A stretch of 43,579 nt of DNA. It comes from a virus. Its lineage: Duplodnaviria > Heunggongvirae > Uroviricota > Caudoviricetes. Location of the stretch: the IMG/VR virus record IMGVR_UViG_2671181030_000006, one strand, 5' to 3'. The notes beneath the pieces are model-generated. The model searched no databases and was not told where the DNA came from. It saw only the letters and a list, made by a program, of their open reading frames with translations. Positions 16,077-43,030 of the stretch are shown one piece after another (positions within the stretch are counted from its first letter, which is position 1; every line of letters begins with the position of its first letter). A program made the translations under genes and the position numbers.

Positions 16077-16213
16077 GCCGTGACGTTATCGAACGCATCC
16101 GCGACCGCTGGCAAAAGCTTCGCCTCCTGCGTAGCCGCGGCACCGTGCTGGTCGACTACAAAATATTACGCAATTTCGTCCGTATCTATAAGCGCCTGGG
16201 AGAAGCAGCATGA
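16073..16213 (+). CDS. Small basic protein (46 aa), YlcG-like position between rusA and Q
   Basis: Seen: [53 protein letters not shown]-coupled at both ends; not in the ORF track because it is under 60 aa. Confidence 0.5.
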
Positions 16214-16899
16214 CAGCTCAATACTTGGAATTTGTTCGCCAGCAGCTGATAGTGGCCACCGCCGATCTGAGTGGTGCGACGAAAGGGCAACTGGTAGCTT
16301 TTGCAGAGAACGCGCAATTTACCGCTACGGCGCGCAGCCGTGGCCGGAAGAAGGTGTATAGCGAGGTGAAGCAAAAAATGGTTAACCCGGATGGACCGCC
16401 GATGAGCGGCAGCCAGTCCCGCGCTAAGGGTTCCTCAATCGCTCTCGTTCTGCCCGTTGAATACTCGACAGCCAGCTGGCGCCGCGCCCTCCTGTCGCTG
16501 GAAGACCACCAGAAATCCTGGTTGCTGTGGAACTACAGCGACAATATCCGCTTTGAGTATCAGGTAGCGATAACACAGTGGGCATGGGAAGAATTCCGTG
16601 ATCAACTCGGCGCTAAGAAAGTGGCCGGCAAGACGATGGAGCGGCTGAAGAAACTGATATGGCTGGCGGCACAGGACGTGAAAGCAGAGCTGGCGGGTAA
16701 GTATGTATATCAGCACCAGGACCTTGCAGCCCTGTGTGGCGTTAAGCCTGATAACTGGTGCCATAACTACGCTGATTACTGGCGGGCTATGTGCGCCATT
16801 TTTAAGCGGCTTGATAGCGACTCTCTTCTCTGTGCTGTGAGAACACGATCACAACAAAAAGCGACTTTTTCGCAGCAGGGTCTTGCAAAAGTCAATTAA
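16210..16899 (+). CDS. Late-gene antitermination protein Q
   Basis: Seen: 229-aa ORF directly upstream of a short leader, a strong terminator and the lysis cassette. Inference from position and size; sequence recognition is moderate. Confidence 0.75.
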   Translation: MTAQYLEFVRQQLIVATADLSGATKGQLVAFAENAQFTATARSRGRKKVYSEVKQKMVNPDGPPMSGSQSRAKGSSIALVLPVEYSTASWRRALLSLEDHQKSWLLWNYSDNIRFEYQVAITQWAWEEFRDQLGAKKVAGKTMERLKKLIWLAAQDVKAELAGKYVYQHQDLAALCGVKPDNWCHNYADYWRAMCAIFKRLDSDSLLCAVRTRSQQKATFSQQGLAKVN

Positions 16900-16987: not shown

Positions 16988-17016
16988 AGCCTCGGCAATC
17001 CGCCGGGGCTTTTTTA
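16988..17016 (+). terminator. Strong intrinsic terminator (tR'-like) after the Q-proximal leader
   Basis: Seen: 9-bp stem AGCCUCGGC/GCCGGGGCU with a 5-nt loop, followed by UUUUUU. Confidence 0.65.
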
Positions 17017-20595: not shown

Positions 20596-20614
20596 TCCCC
20601 CCTGTCTGATTCCA

Positions 20615-20638
20615 GCCTCGCCTATGCGGGGCTTTTTT
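20615..20638 (+). terminator. Intrinsic terminator after the protease moron
   Basis: Seen: 7-bp stem GCCUCGC/GCGGGGC (one G-U pair) with CUAU loop, followed by UUUUUU. Confidence 0.6.
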
Positions 20639-27134: not shown

Positions 27135-27156
27135 AAAACAGTCCTGACAAACAGAC

Positions 27157-27176
27157 GCCCGTAAGGGCTTTTTTTA
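27157..27176 (+). terminator. Intrinsic terminator after the capsid gene
   Basis: Seen: GCCC-GTAA-GGGC followed by TTTTTTT. Confidence 0.5.
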
Positions 27177-27216
27177 TACCTGAAACCAGCCTCGAAAGGG
27201 GCTGAATGGAGAAGTT

Positions 27217-27811: not shown

Positions 27812-27820
27812 GGAGGCGCT

Positions 27821-28399
27821 ATGTCTGTGAAAGGACTGGAAAGGGCTATTCAGAACCTGAACAGCCTCAGCCGGTTAATCGTTCCTGAGGCAACCGCAAA
27901 AGCACTTAACAGGGTGGCCAGAAGAACGATAAGCCAGGGGAGCAAAGCTGTAGCGAAAGAAGCAACAGTTGATGATAACCGGAAAAAGGGGCTTCCGGTT
28001 CGTCTGGTCCGCCAGCGTTCCCGTCTGCGCAAGGCCCGTCACGATCGCCAGGTCGCGTCGATAAAAATCAACCGCGGTAATCTTCCTGCGATAAAGCTCG
28101 GCACGGCGCGCGTCAGGCTCTCGCGTAAAAAAGGGGCCAGAAACGGAGCGGGCAGCGTCCTTAAAATCGGGCCCTATACCTTTCGTAACGCTTTTATCCA
28201 ACAGCTTGCGAACGGGCGCTGGCAGGTCATGCGGCGCGTAGGTCAGGCCCGTTATCCGATTGATGTGGTCAAAGTTCCTCTTGAGACACCGCTCACCGTG
28301 GCCTTCACCGCTATTTCAAAGCGCCTTATTGAAAGCGATATGCCCAAAGAACTTTCCGCAGCCCTGAAAAACCAACTGAGGATCCACCTGAAGCGATGA
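27821..28399 (+). CDS. Tail completion protein (gpZ-like)
   Basis: Seen: 192-aa basic ORF; position and size match lambda Z, which precedes U. Confidence 0.6.
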   Translation: MSVKGLERAIQNLNSLSRLIVPEATAKALNRVARRTISQGSKAVAKEATVDDNRKKGLPVRLVRQRSRLRKARHDRQVASIKINRGNLPAIKLGTARVRLSRKKGARNGAGSVLKIGPYTFRNAFIQQLANGRWQVMRRVGQARYPIDVVKVPLETPLTVAFTAISKRLIESDMPKELSAALKNQLRIHLKR

Positions 28400-28797
28400 A
28401 CAGACACAGCGCAATTCGTGCAGCCATTCTGGCCAAACTGAAAGCCGAGATCACCGACACGGTCACCTGGTTTGACGGGCGCCCTGTTTTTCTTGAAGAG
28501 CAGGATCTCCCTGCCGTGGCTGTATACCTTTCTGACGCGGAGTACACCGGCGATTCGCTTGACGAAGATTCGTGGCAGGCGGTTGTTCACATCGAGGTAT
28601 TTCTTAAAGCCTCCAGCCCCGACAGCGCGCTTGATTCCTGGATGGAAGAGAAAGTGTATCCGGCAATGGCCTTCATCCCAGGTCTGACCGAACTGGTCGA
28701 GACGTTCACCCCGCAGGGTTATGACTATCAGCGGGATGATGAAATGGCCACCTGGGGTTCAGTCGATTTCACGTACTTAATCACCTATTCAATTTAA
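28396..28797 (+). CDS. U: Tail terminator protein gpU
   Basis: Seen: FDGRPVFLEEQDLPAVAVYLSDAEYTGDSLDEDSWQAVVHIEVFL...GYDYQRDDEMATWGSVDFTYLITY closely resembles recalled lambda gpU. Confidence 0.88.
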   Translation: MNRHSAIRAAILAKLKAEITDTVTWFDGRPVFLEEQDLPAVAVYLSDAEYTGDSLDEDSWQAVVHIEVFLKASSPDSALDSWMEEKVYPAMAFIPGLTELVETFTPQGYDYQRDDEMATWGSVDFTYLITYSI

Positions 28798-28806
28798 GAG
28801 GTACTT

Positions 28807-29550
28807 ATGCCTACTCCAAACCCGCTGGCCCCTGTGAAAGGTGCCGGTACCACCCTCTGGCTTTACACCGGAACGGGCAACGCTTTCGCTAACCCACTCT
28901 CGGATATCGACTGGAACCGCCTGGCGAAAATTAAAGAGCTGACGCCGGGCGAAATGACCGCCGAATCGTATGACGACACTTACCTCGACGACGAGGATGC
29001 CGACTGGAACGCGACGGCCCAGGGGGCAAAATCTGCTGGCGATACCTCGTTCACCCTCGCCTGGAAGCCGGGCGAAGAAGGGCAAAAAGACCTTGTCGCA
29101 TGGTTTATTGATGGCTCAGTACGCTATTACAAAATCAAATACCCGAACGGTACCGTCGACGTTTTCCGCGGCTGGTGCAGCAGCCTGGGTAAAGCCATTC
29201 CGGCAAAAGAGGTCATAACCCGTACAGCGAAAATTACCAATACCGGCAAGCCGGAACTGGCAGAAGAAAGCGGGACCCCGAATATCCCCGTGACAGGCGT
29301 TACGCTCGATAAAGCCACGGCAAGCGTGGCCGTCGGCGCAACCACAACGCTCAATGTGACGGTTAACCCAGCCAGTGCCTCAGATACCGCGTTCCGTGTG
29401 GCAACCTCAGACGGGGCAAAAGCAACGGTCACCGTTAGCGGTAATGCGATCACCGTCACCGGCGTGGCGGCAGGCACCGCTGACGTTATTGTTATGACCA
29501 GCGACGGTAATTTCGTTGCGGTCTGCAAAGTTACCGTAACTGCAGCGTAA
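28807..29550 (+). CDS. V: Major tail protein gpV with C-terminal Ig-like (Big_2-type) domain
   Basis: Seen: [22 protein letters not shown]...[39 protein letters not shown] is near-identical to recalled lambda V. Confidence 0.92.
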
Positions 29551-29560
29551 GGAAGGACGC

Positions 29561-29992
29561 ATGTTTCTGAAAAAAGAGAAGTTCACCTGGCAAAAAGAAT
29601 CACTGACCATCTTCGAGCTGTCGGCGCTTCAGCGTATTGAGTACATCACGTTTATGGCCGCAGAGGAAAAGGCCGTCAGCGCTGACAGCGACGGCATCAG
29701 CGATCAGGAAATGACGGCCAGGCTGATTGGCTCAAATATTCGCTGCGGTGCGCGTTTGATTGCGATGTCTTTGTGGCATAACGATCCGGCTGGCACGGAT
29801 GTGGAGACGCTTTACCAGCAGGTGCTTAGCGGCTGGCCGCCGGAGGCGATCGGTAAAGCAGAAATGGAAATAAAGCTGCTCTCCGGCATGCTCGTTCCGG
29901 TTGAGGATGACAAAGCTGCCGATCCGGATGCCCCAGCGGAGGCCGAAAGCGCAGAACCCGTTGCGGCGGAAAAGCCCTTGCCAGCGAGCTGA
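29561..29992 (+). CDS. G: Tail assembly chaperone gpG
   Basis: Seen: 143-aa acidic ORF between V and the tape-measure gene, with an overlapping -1 frame open from 29911. Confidence 0.75.
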   Translation: MFLKKEKFTWQKESLTIFELSALQRIEYITFMAAEEKAVSADSDGISDQEMTARLIGSNIRCGARLIAMSLWHNDPAGTDVETLYQQVLSGWPPEAIGKAEMEIKLLSGMLVPVEDDKAADPDAPAEAESAEPVAAEKPLPAS

Positions 29993-30315
29993 AGTTTGTC
30001 CTGAATCTGGCGCGCGAGTTCGGGCGACCCGACTGGCGCGCCATGCTGGCTGGAATGACTTCCACTGAGCTGGGCGACTGGCACCAGTTCTACCGGGAGC
30101 ATTATTTTCAGGACGCTCAGCTCGATGCGCATTTCTCAGAGCTGCTTTATTCCATCTCCACTCTTTTCTTCCGCGACCCGGAACTTACCCCCGCACATTT
30201 CAGCCTGCTTTCTCCTTCCGGTATCGTCATCAGCGATGACGAGCCGGATGATGATGCGCTGATGGCCGCAGCTGAGGGGATAACAGGAGGTATCCGATAT
30301 GGCCCAGCAGATTAG
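29989..30315 (+). CDS. T: gpT region of the G-T programmed -1 frameshift product (T frame, -1 relative to G)
   Basis: Seen: the -1 frame is open from 29911 to 30315 and overlaps the G 3' end; candidate slip site GGAAAAG at 29968-29974. Established knowledge: G/GT frameshifting is conserved in tailed phages. Confidence 0.6.
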
Positions 30316-33300
30316 CGATCTGGTCATCAACCTTGACGTCGACAGCGCCACGTTTAGTGAGCAGGTTGCCCGCATAAAGGGCCAGCTAACCGGGATGGCT
30401 GAGGACTCTGAAAAAGTCCAGACGCGAATGCAGCGCGCTTCAGAGCGGCAGGCGGCTGCGTTTAAAACCGTGGGCGACGCTGGCGCGGCGGCTGCCGCAG
30501 ATATGAAATCCCGCCAGTCGGCCGCAACGGAAGGGCTTACCAAAGACTGGCAGAACGTTTCAAAGTCCGTTGATGAAACTCACCGCCGCGTGACCGAGCT
30601 TAATCAGCGCATGCGTGAGAATGACGGGCAGGCCGCTGCGCTTGCCCGTCGACAGGATGAACTTGCGGCATCATTTTTCCGCCAGATCGACGGCGTACGC
30701 CAGCTCAATGGTGAAACACAGTCGCTTGCGAACGTGCAGGCGCGCTTTCGCGCAGCGAGGGCACAGGGCAACATAACCCAGCAGGATTATCTCGCCCTTA
30801 TTTCCCGCACCACGGCCCGTCAAAAAGAACTGCAGATCGTGGAGGAAAAATCGGCCGCAGCGCGCACGCGATTCCTCAGCCAGCTGAAGCAACAGGTTGC
30901 AGAGCAAAAGCTCTCCGGTACCGAGCTACTGCGCATGAAGGCGGCGCAGGTCGGTGCCAGCGATGCGGCTGAAGTCTATATCCGCAAGCTCGAAGCTGCC
31001 AAAGTCGCCACGCACGGTCTGGGGCTGCAAAGTGCCGCCGCCCGGCAGGAACTGGGAATACTGATCGGCGAGGTCATGCGCGGTAACTTCGGCGCGCTGC
31101 GCGGCTCCGGGATCACGCTGGCTAACCGGGCAGGGTGGATAGACCAGCTTCTGTCACTGCGCGGTCTTGGGATCGCCAGCATGGTCGGAGGGATTGCCGC
31201 GGCGGTATTCGGGTTGGGTAAGGCCTGGTACGACGGCAGCAAAGAGTCTGAGGAATTTAACAGGCAGCTGATCCTGACCGGGAACTACGCGGGGAAAACG
31301 TCAGGGCAGCTGCAGGCGCTGGCGCGCTCGCTGGCAGGTAATGGCATCACTCAGCATGCCGCTGCAGGCGTGCTGGCGCAGGTCGTTGGCAGCGGCGCGT
31401 TCAGCGGTAATGACGTCAGCATGGTCAGCAATGTTGCCGCCAGGCTGCAGCAGGCTACCGGGCAGGCCGTTGACGAAACCATAAATCAGTTTAAACGCCT
31501 GAAGGATGATCCGGTTAACGCGGTCGCGACGCTCAACGATTCCCTTCATTTTCTGACAGCCACCCAGTATGAACAGATAGCTTCTGCTCAGGCGCTGGGG
31601 GATTCTCAGAAGGCTGCCGAGCTGGCCATGCGGGCATATTCCGACGCGGTCATTCAGCGCGCCGGTGCGGTCGAGGATAATCTCGGATCCCTCGAAAAAG
31701 CCTGGAACTGGGTGAAGAATGCCGCCTCCGGTGCGTGGGATGCGATGCTGGGCGTCGGGCGTAATCCTGACACCGCGATGAAGCGCCAGGACTCTTTTGC
31801 TGAGTGGCAGGCAGCAGAGAAAGAGTACCGCGCGCTGTCCAGCAATCTTAAGGTCGACCCGGATTATGCCGGTAACAACGTTCTGCAGAAAGCGGATGCG
31901 GAAAGGCTGAGAAACGCGCGCCAGCAGGTGGAGCTGAAAAAGCAGGCTTACGATCTTGCCGATCAGCAATACGCCCAGGAAGGGCTGGCAGCCGCGCGGG
32001 AAAAAATGCGAACGGACCAGCAGGCTCAGGCAATCCGCAGCCAGCAGCAGTTTAACCAGCTGGTGGAGTCCGGCGCGACGGCGGCAGAAAAGCGGGCTTC
32101 AGCAGAGAAAAAGCTCAGTCAGCTTATTGAGAAAAACCGCCAGGATGCGAAAGACGGTGTCGCCACGCTGTGGACTGAAAAGGACATTGCCGCGGCCCGC
32201 GCCGGGATTGAAAAGCAGTGGAAGGATCCAAAAACACCGAAAGGCAAAAGCTACTCAACGCCCGCCGGGGACAAAGCCGAGGAAAAGGCGCAGGCCGAAC
32301 TTCTCACCCTTCAGGCCCAGCTTAAAACGCTTGAGCAGCATACCAGCGTGAACGACGTCATAAGTAAACAGCGTCAGGATCTCTGGCAAACTGAAAATCA
32401 GTTCACCGTTCTGCAGGAGGCCGCTGGGCGTCGTCAGCTTACGGCGCAGGAAAAATCCCTGCTGGCGCACAAAGAAGAAACGCTCGAGTACAAGCGGCAG
32501 CTGGCCGACCTGGGCGATAAGGTTGCCAGCCAGCAAAAGCTCAACCAGCTGGCCGATCAGGCCGTGAAGTTTGAGCAGCAGCAAAAAGCCGCCAGGGCGG
32601 GCCTGCAGGCTCAGTCTGAGGGGTTATCCACCCGGGAAGCCGGGCGACAAACTACGCTGCAGCGTCTCAGCGAAAGCTATTCGTACAACCCTCAGGCGCA
32701 GCAAAAGGTTCTGGAAGAGCAAAGGGCGACGTTCGAAGCTGAAGATGCCCTGCGTGCAAACTGGCTGGCCGGTGCGAAACAGGGTTGGGCCGAATATCAG
32801 GATTCAGCGACAAACGTTTTCAGCTCCGTTCAGCAGATTTCTCAGGCTACGTTCAGCGGGTTGGCGGGCCAGCTTACCAGCCTGACGACAACCGGGAAGG
32901 CGAGCTTCAGGGAATTCACCAGCTCGATCCTTAAAATGATTGTGTCCGTTATCAACCAGCTGCTGGTGGCTTACACCATCCAGAGTGCAATGGGCTGGGT
33001 TAGCGGCGGGGCGAAAACCTCCTCTGCCGGTCAGTCATTCGCGGTCCCGTCATACCGGCCACAGGGTTTTGACGTGGGCGGTTTTACCGGGCACGGCGGC
33101 AAGTACGAGCCAGCCGGTATCGTTCACCGCGGGGAATTCGTCTTCACCAAAGAATCAACCAGCCGCATCGGCGTGGCTAATCTCTATCGCCTGATGCGCG
33201 GGTATGCCTCGGGTGGTCTGGTCGGCGGCGGGAACGCAGCCGGTGCTGGCATGGGCGGGATCAGTGTTTATGCCCCAGTCAGCATCAGCCAGCAGGGGAG

Positions 33301-33436
33301 TGACGGAAGCATAAATCAGGCGAACGCCACGGGGACGGCGAAACAGCTGCAGGCGATTGTTCAGCAGACAATCACCGAGCGACTGAAAAAAGAAATGTCC
33401 GCGGGCGGCGTGCTTTATTCGAGGAGGACACAGTGA
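30299..33436 (+). CDS. H: Tail tape measure protein (gpH-like)
   Basis: Seen: 1045-aa Ala/Gln-rich coiled-coil ORF following G/T. Confidence 0.9.
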
Positions 33437-33771
33437 CGGACACGTTTACCTGGCGCACGCGAAAAACAGCGCAGGGCACTGAAACAGCCCGAACGCTGCA
33501 GGCCCAGTTCGGGGATGGCTACAAACAGATAGCGGGGATGGGGATCAACGACAAACAGGAAACGTGGAACCTGGACTGGACGGGCACCAGACAGGAGGCG
33601 GCTGCGCTGCGCGCTTTCCTGATGTCTCACGTTACTAAATCGTTCTGGTGGACCACTCCATGGGGTGAAAAAAAGCTGTTCAGAATGAAGGCCGATTCGT
33701 TCAGCGTTTCTTTCCCTACCGGGAAAAAAGCCACTGTGGCCTTCACTTTTGAACAGGCGTTCGCGCCCTGA
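33433..33771 (+). CDS. M: Minor tail protein gpM
   Basis: Seen: FGDGYKQ...WNLDW...[16 protein letters not shown] resembles recalled lambda M; GTG start after GAGGAGG. Confidence 0.85.
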
Positions 33772-33791
33772 TTTTCTCGAAAAACACTGAA

Positions 33792-33818
33792 AGCTGCCTC
33801 CGGGCGGCTTTTTTTTAT
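33792..33818 (+). terminator. Intrinsic-terminator-like hairpin plus U-tract between M and L
   Basis: Seen: 7-bp stem AGCUGCC/GGCGGCU with UCCG loop, followed by nine U. Confidence 0.45.
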
Positions 33819-33827
33819 GGGGGGAGT

Positions 33828-34565
33828 ATGAGTTTTACGGCAGACATACAACAGCTTGAGCCCGGCAGCGTTATTCAGCTGATTGAGATCGACGGCACTG
33901 AATTCGGTATGGATCAGGTGCTGCGTTTTCATGCGCACAATATTCAGGAAGAGGGGTGGGCAGCCTTCGCCGCAGAAAATCTGCCCGCCATTATCTGGCA
34001 GGGAAACCAGTACGATCCCCATCCCTACGAACTTAAGGGGATGGAGTTATCGAGTACAGGTTCCCAGCCAACGCCCACGCTGTCCGTCGGGAACGTCGGA
34101 AACTATGTCACCGCGCTGTGTCTTGAATATGACGATATGGTCAGGGCTAAGGTCAAAATCCATACCACGCTTTCGAAGTATCTCGATGCCGCCAACTGGA
34201 AAAACGGTAATCCGGGTGCCAGCCCGGCCGATGAGCGCTTACAGCTCTTTTACGTCAATGCTAAAACCGCAGAGACGCGGGTACAGGTTGATTTCGAGCT
34301 GTGTTCTCCTTTCGATATTCAGAGCCTGCAGCTGCCGACACGGCAGATTACGCCTGTCTGCACCTGGTGTATGCGGGGCTGGTACCGAAGCGGGACCGGA
34401 TGCGATTACAACGGCACGAAATACTTTACCAAAGACGGTACACCGACCGATGACCCGTCGAAAGATGTTTGTGGCGGCCGCCGGCAGGATTGTCAGGATC
34501 GTCACGGCCCGGATGCGCCGCTGCCGTTCGGCGGTTTTCCGGCTGCAAACCTGCAGGGGAAATAA
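33828..34565 (+). CDS. L: Minor tail protein gpL
   Basis: Seen: PTLSVGNV...TWCMRGWYRSGTGCDY... resembles recalled lambda L, including the Cys-rich C-terminus. Confidence 0.85.
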   Translation: MSFTADIQQLEPGSVIQLIEIDGTEFGMDQVLRFHAHNIQEEGWAAFAAENLPAIIWQGNQYDPHPYELKGMELSSTGSQPTPTLSVGNVGNYVTALCLEYDDMVRAKVKIHTTLSKYLDAANWKNGNPGASPADERLQLFYVNAKTAETRVQVDFELCSPFDIQSLQLPTRQITPVCTWCMRGWYRSGTGCDYNGTKYFTKDGTPTDDPSKDVCGGRRQDCQDRHGPDAPLPFGGFPAANLQGK

Positions 34566-34567
34566 AA

Positions 34568-35287
34568 ATGCGTGAAAAATTGCTGGATGCTATCCGTCAG
34601 CACGTCGCTGCTGAATACCCCAAAGAAGCCTGCGGCCTGATTGTTCAGTCAGGCCAGCAACAAATCTTTATTCCCTGCCGCAACATTGCCGATAAACCCG
34701 AGGAGACATTCACGCTCTCCCCGGAAGACCAGCTCGCTGCCCGCGCGCGCGGTGAGATCATCATGCTCATTCATTCCCATCCGGATGTGGTTCGGCTGGT
34801 GCCCTCAGAGCTGGACCGGATCCAGTGCGACTGGTCGGGGATTGAGTGGGGGATCATGTCCTGGCCGGACGGGGATTTTTGTACGATTTCCCCGCGTGAA
34901 GACCGGGATTATGCCGGGCGGCAGTGGGTGCTGGGTTACGCCGACTGCTGGTCGCTTATCCGTGAATTTTATCTGCGCGAATACGGCATTGTTCTCGGCA
35001 ATTATTCAGTACCTTACGAATGGTGGGAGAGCGGCAAGGAGCGTCTCTACGACGACAACTGGGAGCGTGAGGGATTCGTTGAGATTGCCGCCGGTGCAAT
35101 GCAGCCCGGAGATATCATCATGATGAGTGTGCAGGCATCGGTGACTAATCACGCCGCGGTATATGTGGGTGATAACATCATTCTCCATCATCTTTTCGGG
35201 CACCTTTCTTCGCGAACGCCTTATGGAAAATATTATCGCGACAGAACGGTCCGGGTGGTCAGGCATAAGGACAGAATGCATGGTTAA
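34568..35287 (+). CDS. K: Tail assembly protein gpK (JAB/MPN metalloprotease-like N-terminus plus NlpC/P60-like C-terminus)
   Basis: Seen: HSHPD JAMM-type motif and a later Cys/His pair (GYADCW, NHAAVYVG...LHH). ATG 34568 chosen; the track ORF starts earlier. Confidence 0.85.
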   Translation: MREKLLDAIRQHVAAEYPKEACGLIVQSGQQQIFIPCRNIADKPEETFTLSPEDQLAARARGEIIMLIHSHPDVVRLVPSELDRIQCDWSGIEWGIMSWPDGDFCTISPREDRDYAGRQWVLGYADCWSLIREFYLREYGIVLGNYSVPYEWWESGKERLYDDNWEREGFVEIAAGAMQPGDIIMMSVQASVTNHAAVYVGDNIILHHLFGHLSSRTPYGKYYRDRTVRVVRHKDRMHG

Positions 35288-35897
35288 GACGCTTATTCTC
35301 GAAGGTAAAATGGCAAAAAAATTCGGTAAACGCGTTCAGTTTGATGTTGCCGACCTGCGCGAGATGCTCAGGGCCATGTGTTCACAGGTTCCCGGATTCA
35401 AAAAATATATGTCTGAAGCTCATATGAAGGGGATCCGTTTCGCCTTTTTTAACGGTGGCAACAATATCGGGCTGGAAGAGTTTGATATGACCCGCGGTGG
35501 AAGCGTGTACCGGATCGTGCCCGTTTATGAGGGGGCCAAAAGTTCGGGCGTCCTGCAGATAGTTGTCGGGGCTGTTGCGCTGGTCGCTGCATTCTTTACC
35601 GCTGGTGCGAGCATGGCAGCCTGGGGCGCGGCGATGAGTGCAACAGCTATCAGCGCCACGTCAATTCTGACAGGGGTCGGAGTGTCGATGATGCTGGGGG
35701 GCGTTGTCCAGATGCTCACGCCCCAGCCATCCTTCGGCGCGGGTAAATCCTCCAGCACGGACAACACGCCTAACTACGCCTTCGGGGCGCCGGTCAATAC
35801 CGTCGCTATGGGGCATCCTGTCCCCCTGGCCTACGGTCTGACTGAGGCAGGGGGAGCGATAGTCAGCGCCGGTATGTACTCGAGCGATCAGCAGTAG
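35280..35897 (+). CDS. I: Tail assembly protein gpI
   Basis: Seen: GAKSSGVLQIVVGAVALVAAFFTAGASMAAWGAA...MMLGGVVQMLTPQP resembles recalled lambda I. Confidence 0.85.
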   Translation: MVKTLILEGKMAKKFGKRVQFDVADLREMLRAMCSQVPGFKKYMSEAHMKGIRFAFFNGGNNIGLEEFDMTRGGSVYRIVPVYEGAKSSGVLQIVVGAVALVAAFFTAGASMAAWGAAMSATAISATSILTGVGVSMMLGGVVQMLTPQPSFGAGKSSSTDNTPNYAFGAPVNTVAMGHPVPLAYGLTEAGGAIVSAGMYSSDQQ

Positions 35898-35916
35898 GCC
35901 AGCGGCCACTAACTTA

Positions 35917-35939
35917 AAGGTGCTTCGGCACCTTTTTTT
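35917..35939 (+). terminator. Intrinsic-terminator-like hairpin plus T-tract immediately upstream of J
   Basis: Seen: AAGGTGC-TTCG-GCACCTT followed by TTTTTTT, abutting the first in-frame ATG of J at 35940. Confidence 0.45.
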
Positions 35940-35951
35940 ATGGGTGAAAAA

Positions 35952-38900
35952 ATGCAGCTTCTTAAACAAGAAACCATCCTGCAGGGTGCCAAAGGGGGAG
36001 GTGGCAGTTCACATACTCCGGTTGAGCAGCCTGACGATCTGCTGTCGGTCGCAAAATTAAAAATGCTCATTGCCGTTTCTGAGGGGGAAATACAGGGCGA
36101 CCTGACCGCTCAGAACATTTTTCTCAACGATACGCCGCTGGCAAACGACAGCGGGGAATACAACTTCAGCGGCGTGAAATGGGAGTTCCGCAAGGGCACA
36201 CAGGACCAGACCTATATTGCCGGGATGCCCCAGGTCGACAACGAGCTGGCCGTGGGCACAACTGTCACCACCACCGCGCCCTGGACGCGCCAGTTTACAA
36301 ACCTTTCCCTGGATGCCATCCGTATCAAGCTCAGCCTTCCGGTCCAGTATCTCTATAAAGATAATGGCGATATGGTGGGCACGGTCACCGAGTATGCGAT
36401 CGATTTATCAACGGACGGCGGCGCCTGGAAAACGGTTGTAAACGGCAAGTTTGACGGAAAGACCACGACGGAATATCAGCGTGACCACCGTATCGATCTG
36501 CCAAAATCCACGTCCGGCTGGTCTGTCAGGGTCAGGCGTATTACGGCTGATGCCAGCGGATCAAATTCGAAACTGGTTAACGCCTTCAAGGTGTTTTCGT
36601 ATGCGGAAGTCATCGACAGCAAGCTTCGTTATCCTTTAACAGCGCTCCTGTATGTCGAAGTGGACAGCAGCCAATTCAACGGCAGCGCGCCGAAAGTGAC
36701 CTGTAAGATAAAAGGCAAGCTGATTAAGGTTCCGGATAATTACGATCCGAAAACCCGAACCTATTCTGGTTCATGGTCCGGCGGGTTCAAAATGGCATGG
36801 TCCAATAACCCTGCCTGGATCTTTTACGATCTGGTTCTGGATGAAATTTACGGCATGGGCACGCGCGTGGATGCGTCCATGGTGGATAAGTGGGCGCTGT
36901 ATTCAATCGCCCAGTACTGTGACGAAATGGTTTCCGACGGGGCCGGTGGCACCGAACCGCGTTTCACCTGCAACGTTTTCATTCAGAGCCAGGAGGACGC
37001 CTGGCAGGTACTTAACGATCTCGCCGCGGTATTTCGTGGAATAACGTTCTGGGGCAACGATCAGATTTATGTCCAGGCAGACGTCCCGCAGGACGATGTT
37101 GACTGGGTTTATAACGTCTCAAACGTTATCGATGGGCTGTTTACTTATGCGGGCGGCTCATACAAGAATCGCTACAGCTCCTGCCTGGTGTCCTGGTCCG
37201 ATCCGCAGAACCATTACAGCGATACCGTTGAGGGGGTTTACGATTCGGCGCTTGTAGAACGTTACGACGTCCGGCAGACGTCCCTGACCGCAATCGGCTG
37301 CACCTCGCAAAGTGAAGCGCACCGACGCGGTCGCTGGGTATTGCTCTCCAATGCCAAAGACGGGACCGTATCGTTTGGCGTGGGGCTGGACGGTTATATC
37401 CCTTTGCCCGCTGAAATTATCGGTGTCGCCGATCCTTTCCGCTCTGGTAAGGAGAACGGGGGCCGTATAAGCGCGGCCAACGGCCGCCAAATTACCCTCG
37501 ATCGAGAAATAGACTACGCGGCGAAAGACCGGCTGGTGGTTAACCTTCCCGACGGAAAAGCCCAGACGCGGACAATCAGCGCGGTGAGCGCCGATAAAAA
37601 AACGGTGACGGTGGCTACGGCATTCAGTCAGGTTCCTGTGGCGGGCGCTGTTTGGGCGATAGACAGTGATAACCTCGCAATACAGTACTTCAGGGTCACC
37701 TCAATCGCGGCTAACGACGACAGTACAGGCGGTTTCACTATTACGGCCGTTCAGCACGATCCAAACAAATATCGTTACATCGATGACGGCGTTCGGGTCG
37801 AGTCTCCCCCGATCACCGTCACGCCGATAAGCGTCCTGTCTGCTCCGAAGAATATCGTGGTGACTGAGAGCGATCATGTGTCTCAGGGGCTGACTGTAGC
37901 AAGCCTGGACGTGTCATGGGATAAGGTAGAGGGCGCAATCCGGTATGTTGCCCAGTGGCGTAAGGACAACGGGGACTGGATAAACGTTCCGGTTACCAGC
38001 GCGCAGGGTTTCTCGGTTCAGGGCATTTATTCGGGCAGCTATGACGTGCGCGTACGGGCGCTGAATGCGCAGGATACGTCGTCACCATGGGGATACGGTG
38101 AAACAACTTATCTCTCCGGTAAAACGGGAAAACCGGGTACTCCGCTCAACTTCCTGGCGACCGAAGATGTGGTCTGGCATATCGACCTGACCTGGAAATT
38201 TCCGGATGGCTCAGGCGACACGGCCTATACAGAGATTCAGCGCGCCACAACTGCCGACTACGCCAATCCTGAACTGCTGGTCCTGGTGCCGTACCCGGCT
38301 GCAGATTATCAGCATGGCCCCATGCCTGCCGGCGTTCGCCAGTGGTACCGCGCGCGCCTGATTGACCGTATCGGTAACGCCGGGGACTGGACCGACTGGA
38401 TCATGGGCACGTCCTCGATAGATGTCAGCGAAATAACTAATGACATTCTGGAGGATATGAAAGAGTCGGAAACGTTCAAAGACCTGATCGAGAACGCGGT
38501 GGACAGCAACGAAAAAATTGCTGGCATGGCTAACGATATCAAACAGGCCAACGACGAACTGGAGCAGCAAGCGAAAGATATCGCCAAAAATGCCCAGGAC
38601 GTCGGGAAGGTTCAGACCAGCGTTAATGAGCTTTCCAGCACGGTCGGGAATGTTTCGTCTTCACTCAGTCAGCTTGAGCAGACCGTTGCGACGGCTGATA
38701 CCGCCCTGGGCCAGCGAATCGACAACATCAGCGTTTCTATGGACGGCATGACGGGCGGGGTGAAGAACTCTGCAATTGCGATAATCCAGGCCAACCTCGC
38801 TCAGGTGGCCACGCGTAAAACCCTTTCTGCATCGGTCGCCGGCAACAGCGCGAATCTGGACCGCATTGATGAAGTGATTGTCAACGACAGGGAGGCAACG

Positions 38901-39866
38901 GCGCGCTCGCTGTTGAGCCTGCAGACGGACGTTAACGGCAACAAGGCATCCATCAACAGCCTGAACCAGACGTTCTCCGATTACCAGCAGGCTATGGCCA
39001 CGCAGGTAAACAGCATCACGGCGACGGTGAACGGGCATACCTCAGCCATCACCACCAACGCTCAGGCCATAGCGAACGTAAACGGCGACCTCAGCGCGAT
39101 GTACAACATCAAGGTTGGTGTCTCCAGCAACGGGCAGTATTACGCCACGGGGATGGGTATCGGCGTGGAGAATACGCCATCCGGCATGCAGTCGCAGGTT
39201 ATCTTCCTGGCTGACCGCTTCGCCGTCACCACGGCAGCCGGAAATAGCGTAGCTTTGCCGTTCGTGATCCAGAACGGGCAGACATTCATCCGGGCCAGCT
39301 TCATCCAGGACGGCACCATTGAGAACGCCAAAATCGGCAACTATATCCAGTCCAACAACTATGCAGCTGGTTCTGCTGGTTGGAAGTTGAATAAAGCTGG
39401 AGATGCTGAATTCAACAATGTGACCGTCAGAGGTGTAGTATATGCTAGTGGCGGTAGCTTTACTGGTGAGATCCAAGCAACAAGCGGTAAATTCAAAGGG
39501 ACTGTGGAAGCCCAAAGTTTTATCGGGGACATTGCAAATATGCACACCGGAACTAACGTTAGTCGGTCTAGTGACGGTCTTTTAGAAAAGGTAATAACTT
39601 ATACGGATTCATCCAGTTCTGGGCACGCAAGACACGTCTGTGTTATAGCAAACGTTAAAGGTAATGGTGCAGGACTAATCAATATTAACGGCAATGAGAG
39701 TGGTTCATCTGTGCAAGACGTGGAGAGACTTATTATGCATTCTGCTGTTGTAACAGGTCCAAGCGTAACAGTACGTATTAAAGTGTCCGCTCAAAATAAC
39801 AGAGGCGCGTCCATTTATTCGCCTACTGTCATAGTATCACACGGATCTGGTTCATTCACAGGTTAA
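35952..39866 (+). CDS. J: Central tail fibre / host specificity protein gpJ
   Basis: Seen: 1.3-kaa ORF with J-like N-terminus (KGGGGSSHTP) and conserved core (WSNNPAWIFYDLV..., GGTEPRFTCNVF). Start could be ATG 35940 or 35952; 35952 chosen because the upstream hairpin T-tract abuts 35940. The last about 170 codons are AT-rich. Confidence 0.88.
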   Translation: MQLLKQETILQGAKGGGGSSHTPVEQPDDLLSVAKLKMLIAVSEGEIQGDLTAQNIFLNDTPLANDSGEYNFSGVKWEFRKGTQDQTYIAGMPQVDNELAVGTTVTTTAPWTRQFTNLSLDAIRIKLSLPVQYLYKDNGDMVGTVTEYAIDLSTDGGAWKTVVNGKFDGKTTTEYQRDHRIDLPKSTSGWSVRVRRITADASGSNSKLVNAFKVFSYAEVIDSKLRYPLTALLYVEVDSSQFNGSAPKVTCKIKGKLIKVPDNYDPKTRTYSGSWSGGFKMAWSNNPAWIFYDLVLDEIYGMGTRVDASMVDKWALYSIAQYCDEMVSDGAGGTEPRFTCNVFIQSQEDAWQVLNDLAAVFRGITFWGNDQIYVQADVPQDDVDWVYNVSNVIDGLFTYAGGSYKNRYSSCLVSWSDPQNHYSDTVEGVYDSALVERYDVRQTSLTAIGCTSQSEAHRRGRWVLLSNAKDGTVSFGVGLDGYIPLPAEIIGVADPFRSGKENGGRISAANGRQITLDREIDYAAKDRLVVNLPDGKAQTRTISAVSADKKTVTVATAFSQVPVAGAVWAIDSDNLAIQYFRVTSIAANDDSTGGFTITAVQHDPNKYRYIDDGVRVESPPITVTPISVLSAPKNIVVTESDHVSQGLTVASLDVSWDKVEGAIRYVAQWRKDNGDWINVPVTSAQGFSVQGIYSGSYDVRVRALNAQDTSSPWGYGETTYLSGKTGKPGTPLNFLATEDVVWHIDLTWKFPDGSGDTAYTEIQRATTADYANPELLVLVPYPAADYQHGPMPAGVRQWYRARLIDRIGNAGDWTDWIMGTSSIDVSEITNDILEDMKESETFKDLIENAVDSNEKIAGMANDIKQANDELEQQAKDIAKNAQDVGKVQTSVNELSSTVGNVSSSLSQLEQTVATADTALGQRIDNISVSMDGMTGGVKNSAIAIIQANLAQVATRKTLSASVAGNSANLDRIDEVIVNDREATARSLLSLQTDVNGNKASINSLNQTFSDYQQAMATQVNSITATVNGHTSAITTNAQAIANVNGDLSAMYNIKVGVSSNGQYYATGMGIGVENTPSGMQSQVIFLADRFAVTTAAGNSVALPFVIQNGQTFIRASFIQDGTIENAKIGNYIQSNNYAAGSAGWKLNKAGDAEFNNVTVRGVVYASGGSFTGEIQATSGKFKGTVEAQSFIGDIANMHTGTNVSRSSDGLLEKVITYTDSSSSGHARHVCVIANVKGNGAGLININGNESGSSVQDVERLIMHSAVVTGPSVTVRIKVSAQNNRGASIYSPTVIVSHGSGSFTG

Positions 39867-39898
39867 AATATTAACCCCTCTTTTTAGGGGTTAATATT
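39867..39898. terminator. Bidirectional terminator / perfect palindrome between convergent J and lipoprotein genes
   Basis: Seen: 14-bp perfect inverted arms (AATATTAACCCCT...AGGGGTTAATATT) around a T-rich loop. Confidence 0.55.
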
Positions 39899-40131
39899 TA
39901 GTAGTCTATAACACAGTTAGAAGGGCTACCGATTCGTCGGTATTCGTGATCAATCTCGTGACACCACTGCCCCGTCATTGGAAGGTTTTCGGTATCATAA
40001 ATTAAAGAACCGTTACCATCTCGATCCAAAGGTTTTGGAATGACACCGGAATTTGGTTTACCGGTATTTAAACCATTACCACATGCAGTGAGGGACAGAC
40101 ATAATGGCAGCATAATTAGAGCGAGTTTCAT
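39898..40131 (-). CDS. Small lipoprotein (signal peptide plus lipobox LTAC), moron in the Cor/Bor-like position
   Basis: Seen: 77-aa ORF MKLALIMLPLCLSLTACG with strong AAGGAG Shine-Dalgarno; convergent with J; AT-rich. Confidence 0.65.
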   Translation of the reverse strand: MKLALIMLPLCLSLTACGNGLNTGKPNSGVIPKPLDRDGNGSLIYDTENLPMTGQWCHEIDHEYRRIGSPSNCVIDY

Positions 40132-40213
40132 TTGGACTCCTTTGTGTTGTTGACAAGGTTCAATTTTAATATACTTGTTGTGTTGAGTAAGTCAAATAAA
40201 GTGGGAAATGTTA

Positions 40214-40558
40214 TGGCAATTCGTTTACATGGTATTTTAGTTGATGGATTGAATAAACCAATCGTCAACGCAAACGTCTTCTTACTTGCACGAAGCCATT
40301 CATTTTTGATGGGACAATAAATATCACCAATGCGAACCTGAATATTGGTGATAAATTTTGCCAGATTGTTTATACCGGGGCTAACTGTCGACACGTTGGT
40401 GGTTACGGAAATATTAGGTATAAAGGAATTGTAATGACAGGTGGGAATGTCATAGCGGAAAGGAATAAAGTAGTCGGCAATTATTATTTGGGTGGGTGGT
40501 CAATGGCATTTGATACAACTATAGCTATGCCAACACTGGCGTTGCCCAACATGTATTA
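40214..40558 (+). pseudogene. Decayed remnant of a side-tail-fibre (stf-like) gene start, interrupted by stop and frameshift
   Basis: Seen: MAIRLHGILVDGLNKPIVNANVFL resembles the recalled lambda Stf N-terminus (MAVKISGVLKDGTGKPVQNCTI); the ORF stops after 35 codons and continues in another frame. Confidence 0.35.
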
Positions 40559-40636
40559 AAAACCAATTCAGAAATTATTTCTGGTGAGGGTTATATACCT
40601 CTCCGGGCTTCATGTTGTCTAAATTTAGGAGTTGTT

Positions 40637-41548
40637 ATGATTTATAGCACCGGAACTATCTCTATTAACGGAAATACCGCAACCGGCTCCGGCACAAACT
40701 GGACAGCTCCCGCCAGCCAGGTCCGCGCTGGCCAGACGATTATCGTGATGTCTAACCCGGTGCAGCTGTTTCAGATTTCATCCGTGAACAGCGCCACGTC
40801 AATGACGGTTACGCCAGCAGTTTCCCCGGCGCTGAGCGGCCAGAAGTATGGAATCCTTGTGTCGGACAATATCTCAGTCGACGGCCTGGCGCAGGCCATG
40901 TCACAGCTCATCAAAGAGTACGACGAGAATATTGGCGCGTGGGAGACGTTCGCCACCACCTCAGCAAACCAAAGCATCACAGTTACCATCAACGGCACCG
41001 CCGTAACCATCCCAGGCATCGGTAAACTTGCGCAGAAAGGGAGCAACGGTGCGGTTACTGTCGCAGACGGCGGAACCGGCGCAACGAATGCCGCAGACGC
41101 TCGCACAAACCTTGGTTTGGGAGAAGGCTCAGCATTACCTGTTGGGGTGCCTGTTCCGTGGCCTTCAGCCACTCCGCCAACAGGCTGGCTGAAATGCAAT
41201 GGTGCGGCTTTTTCTGCTGAAGAATACCCGGAACTGGCAAAGGCTTACCCGACAAATAAATTGCCTGATTTACGCGGTGAATTTATTCGTGGATGGGATG
41301 ATGGGCGCGGGGTGGATTCCTCTCGTGGTTTGTTGACATCTCAAGACCATTTATTTGCTTCTCATGGGCACTGGTTTGACCAGTACTATGCGCTAAAAAG
41401 TTTTGATCCAACGGGAGGTCGGTTCGTAGTTACGGCTGATGCTTTCGGGGAACTTATTACGGCAAATTCAATTTCTACGGTATCGGTTGGTGGTTCTGAA
41501 ACCCGGCCGCGCAACGTCGCATTTAACTATATCGTGAGGGCAGCCTGA
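40637..41548 (+). CDS. Side tail fibre protein (constant N-terminal part plus currently expressed variable C-terminal part inside the invertible segment)
   Basis: Seen: AGGAG Shine-Dalgarno; C-terminus RNVAFNYIVRAA matches the recalled Stf-type ending NIAFNYIVRLA; the recombination crossover site lies inside the gene near 41101-41126. Confidence 0.8.
   Translation: MIYSTGTISINGNTATGSGTNWTAPASQVRAGQTIIVMSNPVQLFQISSVNSATSMTVTPAVSPALSGQKYGILVSDNISVDGLAQAMSQLIKEYDENIGAWETFATTSANQSITVTINGTAVTIPGIGKLAQKGSNGAVTVADGGTGATNAADARTNLGLGEGSALPVGVPVPWPSATPPTGWLKCNGAAFSAEEYPELAKAYPTNKLPDLRGEFIRGWDDGRGVDSSRGLLTSQDHLFASHGHWFDQYYALKSFDPTGGRFVVTADAFGELITANSISTVSVGGSETRPRNVAFNYIVRAA
41101..41126. repeat. Invertase crossover site, left (inside the tail-fibre gene)
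   Basis: Seen: AAACCTTGGTTTGGGAGAAG; its 15-bp core TTGGTTTGGGAGAAG is repeated in inverted orientation at 42945-42959. Confidence 0.6.
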
Positions 41549-42150
41549 TGAATAAAGCCGTATTAAATAACGAACTCATTGCCATAAAAGCGGGAGACAT
41601 TATCATTTATAATTATGATGGTGAAACGCGTGAATATATTTCTACATCAACTGAATATCTCGCTGTCGGCGTCGGTATCCCGGCATGTTCTTGTTTGGAT
41701 GCACCAGGTACACATAAAGCTGGTTATGCAATCTGTCGCTCTGTAGATTTAAATTCATGGGAATATGTGCCAGATCATCGTGGTGAAATCGTCTATAGCA
41801 CCGAAACAGGAGAATCGAAAAAAATCACAGCTCCGGGTGATTATCCTGAAAATACAACCACTATCGCCCCGTTAACGCCATACGATAAATGGAATGGTGA
41901 GAAATGGGTGACAGATACCGAGGCACAGCACGGCGCAGCAGTAGATGCAGCAGAAGCACTGCGCCAGTCGCTGATTCATACTGCAATGGCCTCCATCAGT
42001 CTGATTCAACTGAAATTACAGGCCGGACGGAATCTGACGCAGGCAGAAACAACCCGCCTTAACGCTGTGCTGGATTACATTTACGCGGTGACGGCAACAG
42101 ATACCAGCACCGCGCCGGATGTCATCTGGCCTGAACTGCCGGAGGCGTAG
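41548..42150 (+). CDS. Tail fibre assembly protein (Tfa), current orientation
   Basis: Seen: 200-aa ORF coupled (ATGA) to the fibre gene; its C-terminus mirrors that of the convergent ORF (conserved WPxxP ending). Confidence 0.8.
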   Translation: MNKAVLNNELIAIKAGDIIIYNYDGETREYISTSTEYLAVGVGIPACSCLDAPGTHKAGYAICRSVDLNSWEYVPDHRGEIVYSTETGESKKITAPGDYPENTTTIAPLTPYDKWNGEKWVTDTEAQHGAAVDAAEALRQSLIHTAMASISLIQLKLQAGRNLTQAETTRLNAVLDYIYAVTATDTSTAPDVIWPELPEA

Positions 42151-42574: not shown

Positions 42575-42585
42575 CCTGAATAAAA

Positions 42586-42978: not shown

Positions 42979-43030
42979 AAATCTGGTGATGCTTCGCCGT
43001 TTCTCCTGTTTTCATAACAGGAGAAATCCC

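Follow-up and report, generated by a model that had tools for sequence, protein, structure and literature searches.

The window analysed in this work, by which we mean the whole stretch of 43,579 nucleotides, is a phi80/mEp043-like prophage in which the genes of the tail-tip cluster are present in the order H-M-L-K-I-J. The gene for the distal tail protein M (33433..33771) is followed by L (33828-34565), K (34568-35287), which begins 2 nt after L, and I (35280-35897), which overlaps K by 8 nt, and then by J (35952..39866), which encodes the central tail fibre/host specificity protein; these genes and all of the features described below are on the + strand. The cluster contains only two gaps, M-L (56 nt) and I-J (54 nt), with one hairpin in each of them. 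M is the last gene before the first of these elements (terminator 1) and L the first gene after it, I is the last gene before terminator 2, and J follows directly, the genes L-K-I (33828..35897) thus forming a tight block bounded by the two terminators. Neither an ORF nor a promoter-like site was found in the M-L and I-J gaps of the window.

Farther upstream, the window carries a gene for the Q antiterminator (16210..16899; Pfam PF06323, E = 1e-79), a strong tR'-like terminator (16988..17015) about 90 nt past the Q stop codon, and a second tR'-like terminator (17326-17352) upstream of the lysis genes. Another strong terminator (20614..20638) is located after an ORF for a 300-aa ClpP/SDH-type protease (19693-20595) and upstream of the packaging genes, and between it and the M-L terminator no promoter or cargo gene was found. 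With Q, the terminators at 16988 and 17326, and the lysis, head and tail genes downstream of them on the same strand, the region has the organization of a Q-antiterminated lambdoid late operon, in which the two tail-tip terminators are located 17–19 kb downstream of the tR'-like terminators. In phi80, late-operon expression requires Q (PMC11364771).

Terminator 1 (33789..33816) consists of a stem-loop (33789-33812) with the sequence GAAAGCTGCC-TCCG-GGCGGCTTTC, which forms 10 pairs (one of them G.U) and a UCCG loop, and of a T8 run (33809-33816) whose first T residues belong to the 3' arm of the hairpin. Terminator 2 (35916..35939) is made up of a stem-loop (35916-35935) with the sequence AAAGGTGC-TTCG-GCACCTTT, which forms 8 pairs and a cUUCGg tetraloop, and a T7 run (35933-35939). 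In both of them the T tract begins within the 3' arm of the stem and the loop is of the UNCG class, and the stems contain five and four GC pairs, respectively. Their fold energies of -16.1 kcal/mol (z = -4.5) and -11.2 kcal/mol (z = -5.4) were not equalled or bettered by any of 200 shuffles in either case, whereas the minus strand of the same two regions folded like shuffled sequences (z = -1.1 and -0.9) and contained no proper T tract. A strict scan of the 43.6 kb window (perfect stem of ≥7 pairs, ≥4 of them GC, loop of 3–8 and T run of ≥6) identified five sites, all on the + strand (16988, 17326, 20614, 33789, and 35916), the one at 20614 being the third, as compared to an expectation of 0.11 ± 0.34 sites from 100 dinucleotide shuffles. 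In a lenient scan, terminators 1 and 2 ranked as the top two among the + strand sites in 26000-43579. The strong T-tailed stem-loops that a first-pass annotation of this DNA had reported in the M-L gap and before J are thus real, and the positions that it gave (33792-33818 and 35917-35939) were accurate to within 1–3 nt, but the T runs, which it described as 7–9 residues long, are of 8 and 7 residues. As both elements combine a GC-rich, short-loop stem with an adjoining U tract, are oriented in the direction of the late operon and are located outside of coding sequence, they are by their anatomy canonical Rho-independent terminators.

Other identities for these hairpins were also considered. 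That they are REP-like repeats was rejected, as each stem sequence is present in a single copy in the window, where matches to it with up to three mismatches were at chance level, and as the stems differ between lineages. A search of Rfam with the hairpins gave no significant match (best E = 0.54, 21.5 bits vs. a gathering score of 50). A leader-type attenuator or riboswitch would include an antiterminator structure that competes with the terminator hairpin and none was found; the sole additional predicted helix, formed by the 5' flank with the Shine–Dalgarno (SD) sequence of L, encloses the terminator rather than competing with it.

The start regions of L and J directly adjoin the T runs. At the M-L site (33817..33830; ATG-GGGGGGAG-T-ATG), the T8 run is followed by an ATG at 33817, the SD GGGGGGAG and the L start at 33828; the ATG at 33817 opens a frame of only four codons, which ends in an ATGA overlap with the L start. 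At the I-J site (35940..35954; ATGGGTGAAAAA-ATG), the T7 run is followed by an ATG at 35940, by GGGTGA, which is SD-like, and by the conserved start codon of J at 35952, and the frame of the ATG at 35940 is not retained in relatives. A 12-mer, TTTTTTTATGGG, is common to both sites and occurs nowhere else in the window (with up to one mismatch there are four matches vs. 0.29 expected), in agreement with the earlier remark that the two hairpins share their downstream context. The possibility that the conserved ATG within TTTATGGG is a true start or a mini-ORF was rejected, since its frame relative to J varies by lineage; it is in frame in the window, meets a stop after two codons in phi80 and is out of frame elsewhere. 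Due to this variability, we read TTTATGGG as an A/U-rich stretch plus SD and take 35952 as the start of J. The start codon is always located 11–12 nt past the T run, and this spacing places the terminator directly against the SD. In the minimum-free-energy fold of the M-L gap, UUUUCUCG, located just past the M stop codon, pairs with the SD of L. However, an outer helix that sequesters this SD, which would have suggested translational coupling, was rejected as no better than chance, since, over 40 distinct gaps, the pairing probability of the L SD was 0.59, as compared to 0.58 when the 5' flank was shuffled. For J, the SD shows a tendency towards lower pairing than in controls with a shuffled flank (mean 0.40 vs. 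0.46).

Both terminators are already known as sites, in that they are marked as putative terminators in records of phi80. In the M-L gap, a putative terminator is marked in the records FN582354 (14016-14046) and JX871397 (13996-14019), and the M-L element of the window shows 100% identity to that of phi80 in sequence as well as in position. A further terminator annotated in FN582354 is located directly before J (16718-16746) and is equivalent in position to terminator 2. However, the pre-J terminator of phi80, with the stem CCCAGC/GCTGGG, closes off the lipoprotein moron MorF, whereas that of the window has the stem GGTGC/GCACC and belongs to an empty slot. No terminators are annotated in the records of mEp043 and mEp213, which are the closest matches to the window. 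In the literature, we found no experimental tests of the terminators of phi80, mEp043 or mEp213, no transcript data for phi80-like phages or the lambda I-J hairpin, and no paper on 3'-end mapping within any lambdoid tail operon.

The distribution of these elements was examined in about 290 related loci, where hairpins were detected in each sequence with shuffle controls, all counts refer to distinct sequences and a terminator was scored within 75 nt upstream of L; at most 0.4% of shuffled sequences scored as a terminator. When the gaps were aligned with MAFFT, RNAalifold returned no structure, as the stems are non-homologous and become mis-registered in the alignment. In most groups, which comprise phi80-, HK022-, and lambda-type clusters and the virulent T1-like phages, about 90% or more of the sequences have a terminator directly before L or J. 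It was found upstream of L in 44/45 phi80-type sequences and, in the T1-like sets, in 25/30 and 12/12; upstream of J it was present in 41/44 phi80-type and 49/53 HK022-type sequences and in 28/30 and 9/15 of the T1-like sets. In the same survey, the L-K junction had a terminator in none of the sequences and the K-I junction in none outside the HK022 type. In the lambda- and HK022-type phages M and L overlap and there is no M-L gap. As regards I-J, the first-pass annotation is incorrect in stating that the operon lacks internal terminators in lambda; in this gap a hairpin, AAACCGCC-TGCG-GGCGGTTTTGTCATTT (-16.5 kcal/mol), is present at lambda 15463-15492 and a terminator was detected in all ten of the distinct lambda-type gaps. 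Single loci lacking the M-L hairpin (L092) or the I-J hairpin (L097) were also observed, and each terminator is dispensable in some lineages. The presence of both elements in virulent T1-like phages suggests that the layout of two gaps and two terminators is an old feature of the tail module.

The stems themselves turn over. At least 28 different stem sequences were found, every one of which is complementary. Within the E. coli clade, nucleotide diversity (pi) is 0.03 in the stem, as compared to 0.07–0.17 for the fastest codon position in the genes on either side, and the few stem changes seen preserve pairing (G-C to G.U, or U.G to U-A); the least conserved part of the M-L gap is the sequence 5' of the hairpin (pi = 0.14). 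This pattern of substitution indicates that the stems are under purifying selection, and the comparison with related prophages that had been proposed earlier as a check therefore finds the elements to be conserved and selected.

In relatives, the two gaps serve as slots for accessory (cargo) genes of low GC content, which are located downstream of the M or I stop codon and ahead of a terminator that adjoins the SD of L or J; this characteristic of both gaps was missed by the earlier annotation. A MorF cassette of 630 nt is present before J in about 20 of 80 phi80-type loci, and inserts of 480–755 nt, some of which are lipoprotein genes with an LTGC/LVGC lipobox, were found before L in six loci. 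The GC content of the inserts is 35–44%, as compared to 52–58% for their flanks, and each of them ends in its own terminator. The record of HK022 itself applies the term moron to the genes that occupy its K-I and I-J gaps, and the HK022 moron terminators, viz. GCCACC-TTCG-GGTGGC-T7-ATGGG in the I-J gap and AAACCACC-TACG-GGTGG-T7-ATGGGG in the K-I gap, are located at the 3' ends of accessory cassettes. The moron terminators of HK97 and HK022, which were reportedly described by Juhala, Hendrix and colleagues, are likewise intrinsic and found inside Q-dependent late operons, between tail genes. A moron is defined as carrying its own promoter and terminator (PMC3594210). The combination of own promoter, ORF and terminator, usually with deviant GC content and with absence from close relatives, was not found in the gaps of the window, which, as they contain neither promoter nor ORF, are not morons but represent what an empty slot consists of at its right-hand end, viz. 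terminator plus SD. The stems of empty slots, GGTGC/GCACC and GCTGCC/GGCGGC, are unlike the cargo-cassette stems of the same clade, and one locus (L094) carries an identical terminator in both slots. We considered and rejected the idea that cargo is exchanged through a recombination junction located precisely at the T run; between phi80, where MorF is present, and the window, the divergence runs about 40 nt into J, and the exchange thus resembles ordinary homologous recombination in the flanking genes.

In lambda, a constitutive late promoter is followed closely downstream by the terminator tR', and Q leads to read-through of tR' and of all later terminators. The window resembles this system in that it encodes Q (PF06323) and has two strong terminators a short distance downstream; however, tR' is a regulatory switch, whereas no regulatory role is known for the tail-tip terminators. 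The late region of T1 is described as made up of units ("transcriptons") bounded by rho-independent terminators (PMC11447400). The tail-tip clusters of T1-like phages (Drexlerviridae) have the same M-L and I-J gaps with a terminator in each, but these gaps are longer (65–88 nt) and contain a -10-like hexamer after the terminator, and the phages are virulent and not known to use Q; in the window, unlike in these gaps, the T run lies against the SD with no room for a promoter. The T7 terminator T-phi, located after the capsid gene, and the REP hairpins of malEFG are intercistronic attenuators or stabilisers, and a stable intercistronic hairpin in the window could similarly set different dosages for the upstream and downstream genes. 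However, T-phi and the malEFG REP elements act without a dedicated antiterminator, whereas the hairpins of the window are single-copy and Q is present.

Based upon their anatomy, non-random occurrence, orientation, conservation in spite of stem turnover and apparent selection on pairing, together with the cargo slots and the presence of Q, we hold with moderate confidence that the two elements are genuine terminators that are mostly read through with Q in lytic growth, stop unmodified polymerase and bound the cargo slots. They would punctuate the tail-tip cluster as H-M | L-K-I | J. In the nascent RNA, a GC-rich, UNCG-looped hairpin followed by 7–8 U residues would release unmodified RNA polymerase, whereas a polymerase that had loaded Q at the late promoter just downstream of the Q gene would be resistant to terminators and read through. 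As Q is encoded in the window, read-through is most likely in lytic growth, in which L, K, I, and J would still be made from one long late transcript, although read-through with Q may be incomplete and some attenuation is possible. The main target of the terminators would then be transcription that is not antiterminated, viz. spurious starts, leakage and, in the lysogen, transcription from cargo genes, and they would form the fixed right-hand end of the two slots, both of which are empty in the window, where spacer, terminator and SD remain. Because no promoter or cargo is present from 20614 to the M-L terminator, an insulator at this location would stop only spurious transcription. In the T1-like phages, the same layout probably delimits ordinary transcription units, and since these virulent phages have no lysogenic state but keep both terminators, at least part of the selected function should operate lytically.

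This last point is also what one would expect if the hairpins were lytic attenuators, at which even Q-modified polymerase terminates at some frequency, with the dosage stepping down before L-K-I and again from J onward. Selection on the stems is consistent with such a role, and J, which is 3.9 kb long, is needed in only 3 copies. The stoichiometry of the lambda virion (gpM 6, gpL 3, gpI 3, gpJ 3, gpK 0; PMC10721106) would fit a step-down between M and L, but gpI and gpJ are equimolar and a stoichiometric reason for a step at I-J is therefore absent. Further, Q antitermination is present in the window, the same tip is assembled by the lambda- and HK022-type phages, in which M and L overlap and have no terminator between them, one of the two hairpins has been lost in individual lineages, and the -10-like hexamer that follows each terminator in the T1-like phages suggests separate transcription units, not attenuation; we thus regard this explanation as unlikely. 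A role after transcription, in which the hairpin shields the upstream segment from 3' exonucleases following cleavage in the U tract, or the hairpin and U tract insulate or enhance the ribosome-binding sites (RBS) of L and J, takes these two genes as translationally uncoupled from the gene upstream. Precedents for it are the stabiliser hairpins between cistrons of the malEFG and puf operons and the U-rich enhancers that bind S1, and the great stability of the UNCG-looped hairpins, their invariable position against the SD and the lower pairing of the J SD point in this direction. However, neither role requires so specific an arrangement as a GC stem with at least 6 U directly behind it, and the pairing of the helix that would hide the L SD is at chance level; we consider such a role doubtful and quite unlikely.

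The frequent gain and loss of cargo in both gaps, the arrival of a different terminator with each cargo, and the one terminator sequence shared by both slots of L094 would be accounted for if the elements were neutral scars, i.e., terminators that arrived with a moron and were left behind, adjacent and functionless, by cargo deletions that must spare the downstream SD. This is improbable, as the empty-slot stems are unlike the cargo-cassette stems of their own clade, stem diversity is 2–4 times below that of near-neutral sites with changes that keep pairing, which is partial evidence of selection on pairing, and some 90% or more of the distinct gaps without cargo have kept a perfect hairpin. 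Lastly, a hairpin with a U tail is an Hfq-binding module, and termination or processing at these sites could free M-3' and I-3' Hfq-binding sRNAs, just as the Hfq-bound sRNA PreS has its 3' end formed by tL2a, an internal terminator of the lambda early operon, and 6S RNA and StxS have theirs formed by tR' (bioRxiv 10.1101/2024.10.31.621285; PMC7547250). However, the sequence 5' of the hairpin is the least conserved part of the M-L gap, stems are replaced wholesale between lineages, a match in Rfam is absent, and RIL-seq of lambda found late-operon sRNAs only near pR' (bioRxiv 10.1101/2024.10.31.621285), all of which makes sRNA production here highly improbable.

For the window itself the finding of the two terminators is of little import, these being ordinary intrinsic terminators that were already marked by the curators of phi80 and are probably neutralised by Q in lytic growth. 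The lambda late operon is usually drawn without internal terminators, but nearly all of the lambda-like tail-tip clusters that we examined, including those of lambda and of the virulent T1-like phages, retain a terminator adjoining the RBS of J. We put forward only tentatively, and as a rather unlikely reading, that this pre-J terminator (in the phi80 and T1 types also the pre-L terminator) is a near-universal maintained mark of lambda-like clusters, with a role in the lytic cycle in addition to that of a cargo boundary; such a reading spans from Q-dependent temperate phages, including lambda, to virulent T1-like phages. If it is true, partial termination or 3'-end formation would lower the expression of J and downstream genes or stabilise the upstream message, and a standard right-hand boundary would let cargo be swapped without disturbing the translation of the next tail gene. 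Prophage cargo, for example lipoproteins and genes for exclusion or defence, can predictably be sought at the M-L, I-J and, in the HK022 type, K-I junctions, and the same junctions would provide safe sites for the insertion of payloads in engineered lambdoid phages.

The sequence of the window is that of a phi80/mEp043-like lambdoid prophage. Its 33000-36500 region is 98.4% identical to mEp043 and mEp213 and 98% to phi80, and its gene order from the integrase to the side tail fibre is the same as in the mEp043 record PV340537. The tail-tip genes all lie on the plus strand: H (30299-33436), M (33433-33771), L (33828-34565), K (34568-35287), I (35280-35897), and J (35952-39866). Only two junctions in this cluster, M-L (56 nt) and I-J (54 nt), are neither overlapping nor abutting, and each of them contains one hairpin followed by a T-run. 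The start of J is most likely at 35952 and not at 35940 as in PV340537, because in relatives the first ATG (window 35940) is either out of frame or followed by a stop after two codons, whereas the second (MQLLKQE...) is conserved together with a preceding GGGTGA Shine-Dalgarno (SD) sequence.

The M-L element (33789-33816, plus strand) consists of GAAAGCTGCC-UCCG-GGCGGCUUUU and further U residues, eight in total, and the I-J element (35916-35939, plus strand) of AAAGGUGC-UUCG-GCACCUUU and further U residues, seven in total. Their folding energies (-16.1 and -11.2 kcal/mol, respectively) were matched by none of 200 shuffles, and folding of the complementary strand was unremarkable at both. A strict terminator scan of the whole window detected five sites, all on the plus strand, versus 0.11 ± 0.34 in shuffled sequences. 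Based upon these energies and the shuffle-controlled scan, the observation in the first-pass annotation that terminator-like hairpins precede L and J is correct and far from chance. The downstream context that it described as common to both hairpins is likewise present, and represents the T-rich distal portion of the terminator, continued by the SD of the next gene (GGGTGA or GGGGGAG); the ATG within it is not a conserved start. This explanation draws upon the gaps of HK022 that carry morons (accessory cargo gene cassettes), in each of which a terminator and TTTTTTTATGGG come after the moron. An outer helix sequestering the SD was rejected, as it was no better than chance. Both hairpins are single-copy, and an Rfam search returned no family for them.

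Of the other three strict sites, two lie just 3' of the Q antiterminator gene (16210-16899), and the third, upstream of the packaging genes, follows a protease-like ORF. This 300-aa ORF (19693-20595), which carries a ClpP-like SDH-type serine protease domain (PF01972, E = 8e-23), lies between the lysis and packaging genes and is closed by a strong terminator (20614-20638), and together they look like a cargo unit; phi80 and other relatives have defence genes (Tai/Ati) at this position (PMC11364771). The stems and tails at 16988-17015 and 20614-20638 are nearly alike (AGCCTCGG...CCGGGGCTTTTTTA vs AGCCTCGCC...GCGGGGCTTTTTTA), which suggests that terminator modules have been duplicated or exchanged within this genome. 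A minimal terminator-like element (27157-27176; GCCC-GTAA-GGGC, T7, AT), whose 4-bp stem is below the reach of the scans used, is found in the 83-nt gap after a large head-protein ORF (24840-27134), the classic site for a partial terminator after a major capsid gene, and is followed by a second hairpin (CAGCCTC-GAAA-GGGGCTG). Additionally, in the 39866-40140 region a perfect palindrome (TTAACCCCT-CTTTTT-AGGGGTTAA) directly follows the J stop codon, and on its far side lies a minus-strand ORF (39898-40131) that is convergent with J and has a product with a lipoprotein-like start (LTAC lipobox); this palindrome likely terminates transcription from both directions, that of J and that of a cargo gene on the other strand.

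The elements are of a known kind and have already been annotated in phi80. Record FN582354 annotates a "putative rho-independent transcription terminator" at the M-L site, with a sequence identical to that of the window, and another terminator directly before J, and in JX871397 the M-L site is a "putative rightward transcription terminator". The latter record places a terminator of the same designation inside the 3' end of L (record 14721-14741), the counterpart of which in the window (~34518-34538, GCCGCTGCCGTTCGGCGGTTTTCC) is only a weak hairpin with T4, missed by both scans. The I-J gap of phi80 differs in being 631 nt long and containing the annotated moron MorF, which consists of a -35/-10 promoter, a lipoprotein gene and a terminator. 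Although the stem of this terminator (AACCCAGC-TCAG-GCTGGGTT) is unlike that of the window, the T-run/SD context following it is almost the same (TTTTTTAATGGGGTAAAAATG).

The comparison with related prophages, proposed in the first-pass annotation, covered 80 IMG/VR loci (L identity 83-100%), 41 genome loci found with an L alignment, 160 loci related to T1-like and HK022 L proteins, and reference records of lambda, HK022, two Drexlerviridae and one Pseudomonas phage. Genes were placed by tblastn, each hairpin-plus-T-run site was scored by its position with respect to the gene start, and the counts that follow are of distinct upstream sequences in which a terminator lies no more than 75 nt ahead of that start. 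A terminator preceded L in 44/45 and J in 41/44 of the phi80-type sequences; for the two T1-like groups the counts were 25/30 and 12/12 before L and 28/30 and 9/15 before J. In the HK022-type and lambda-type loci, M and L overlap and no terminator precedes L, and one precedes J in 49/53 and 10/10 sequences, respectively. The HK022-type loci have a third, usually occupied, slot before I (terminator in 49/56 distinct sequences); none was found before I outside this type, or before K in any surveyed group. Shuffled controls of the same upstream sequences scored as terminators in ≤0.4%. The lambda I-J gap contains AAACCGCC-TGCG-GGCGGTTTTGTCATTT (-16.5 kcal/mol), and hence the earlier premise that lambda lacks terminators in this operon does not hold for that junction. 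The survey also retrieved lambda tail DNA (L100-L110, L117, L119, L120, L124, L125; 98-100% protein identity) on short or low-coverage contigs of assemblies that include the unrelated Neobacillus, Oceanobacillus, Shewanella, Bradyrhizobium, Kitasatospora, and Leeuwenhoekiella, which is almost certainly lambda control-DNA contamination.

The sequence of the stems is not conserved, with at least 28 different complementary arm pairs among the 4-nt-loop hairpins alone, the loops of which are mostly UNCG; RNAalifold failed on alignments of these non-homologous stems. Within the E. coli phi80-like clade, stem diversity (pi = 0.03) is 2-4 times below that of the fastest codon position of the flanking genes (0.07-0.17), diversity of the M-L stem is also below that of its loop and of the 5' part of the gap, and the stem changes seen keep pairing. 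This low diversity and the pairing-keeping changes show selection on the structure itself. Even so, some lineages can do without one or the other terminator, one locus (L092) being without that before L and another (L097) without that before J.

Both gaps also serve as slots for cargo. The MorF cassette is present before J in about one-fourth of the phi80-type loci, and six loci have inserts of 480-755 nt before L. The GC content of the inserts is 35-44% (flanks 52-58%), and each begins right 3' of the M or I stop codon and closes with its own terminator adjoining the SD. Three M-L inserts (L069 860-1201, L070 3092-3445, and L089; 35% GC) encode predicted lipoproteins of 113-117 aa with a signal peptide that ends in an LTGC/LVGC lipobox, for which no Pfam match was found; the insert of L082 has an unrelated 124-aa ORF, and in that of L097 a 190-aa ORF lies on the other strand. 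In a Leclercia adecarboxylata locus (L094), the same GCCACC-TCCG-GGTGGC-T7-ATGGG is present in both slots (~3440-3500 and 5594-5648), before L following a 560-nt insert and before J, which suggests that a terminator or cassette has moved between them. Genes in the K-I and I-J gaps of the HK022 record are similarly labelled as morons, each then followed by a terminator and TTTTTTTATGGG.

The window encodes a Q antiterminator (PF06323, E = 1e-79), and two strong terminators lie 90 and 430 nt past its gene. Polymerase loaded with lambdoid Q proteins ignores intrinsic terminators, and due to this established mechanism we judge read-through to be the most likely mode of action. Both elements would be real terminators for unmodified polymerase, largely read through during lytic growth; in non-antiterminated transcription they would divide the cluster into H-M, L-K-I, and J, and they would mark, on the 3' side, the fixed limit of cargo slots, which are empty in the window. 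Taken as a whole, our analysis makes this picture moderately probable. Expression of the phi80 late operon has been shown to need Q (PMC11364771), and a literature search found no 3'-end data for a lambdoid tail operon.

The proposal of the first-pass annotation, that the hairpins are attenuators setting the stoichiometry of tail-tip proteins, is given Q not the leading explanation, and we regard it as rather improbable. It is kept alive by the T1-like phages, which are virulent and yet retain terminators at the same junctions. A step-down at M-L would also fit the composition of the lambda virion (gpM 6, gpL 3, gpI 3, gpJ 3, gpK 0; PMC10721106), but one at I-J would not. Roles of the hairpins in RNA stability or translation appear unlikely, and their being neutral scars of cargo, which is contradicted by the selection on their stems, is very unlikely. 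That they are 3' ends of sRNAs has a precedent in the lambda sRNA PreS at tL2a, but no supporting feature is present at these hairpins and this is scarcely to be expected.

In the T1-like phages, -10-like hexamers (TACAAT, TATAAT, TATGAT) occur within 10-20 nt after the terminators before L and J (L128 686-747 and 2818-2895; L129 3408-3476 and 5546-5632), which suggests a terminator-promoter pair at each junction, and rho-independent terminators have been described as flanking the units that make up the late region of these phages (PMC11447400). As these virulent phages keep terminators at the same junctions and their late units are terminator-flanked, the two-junction layout is probably ancestral to the tail module, with a meaning for the lytic cycle at least in the T1-like phages. 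Beyond what was annotated in phi80, the added value of these results is modest: J most likely starts at 35952, the M-L and I-J gaps are slots for cargo, and nearly all of the lambda-like tail-tip clusters examined, that of lambda included, have a terminator before J.
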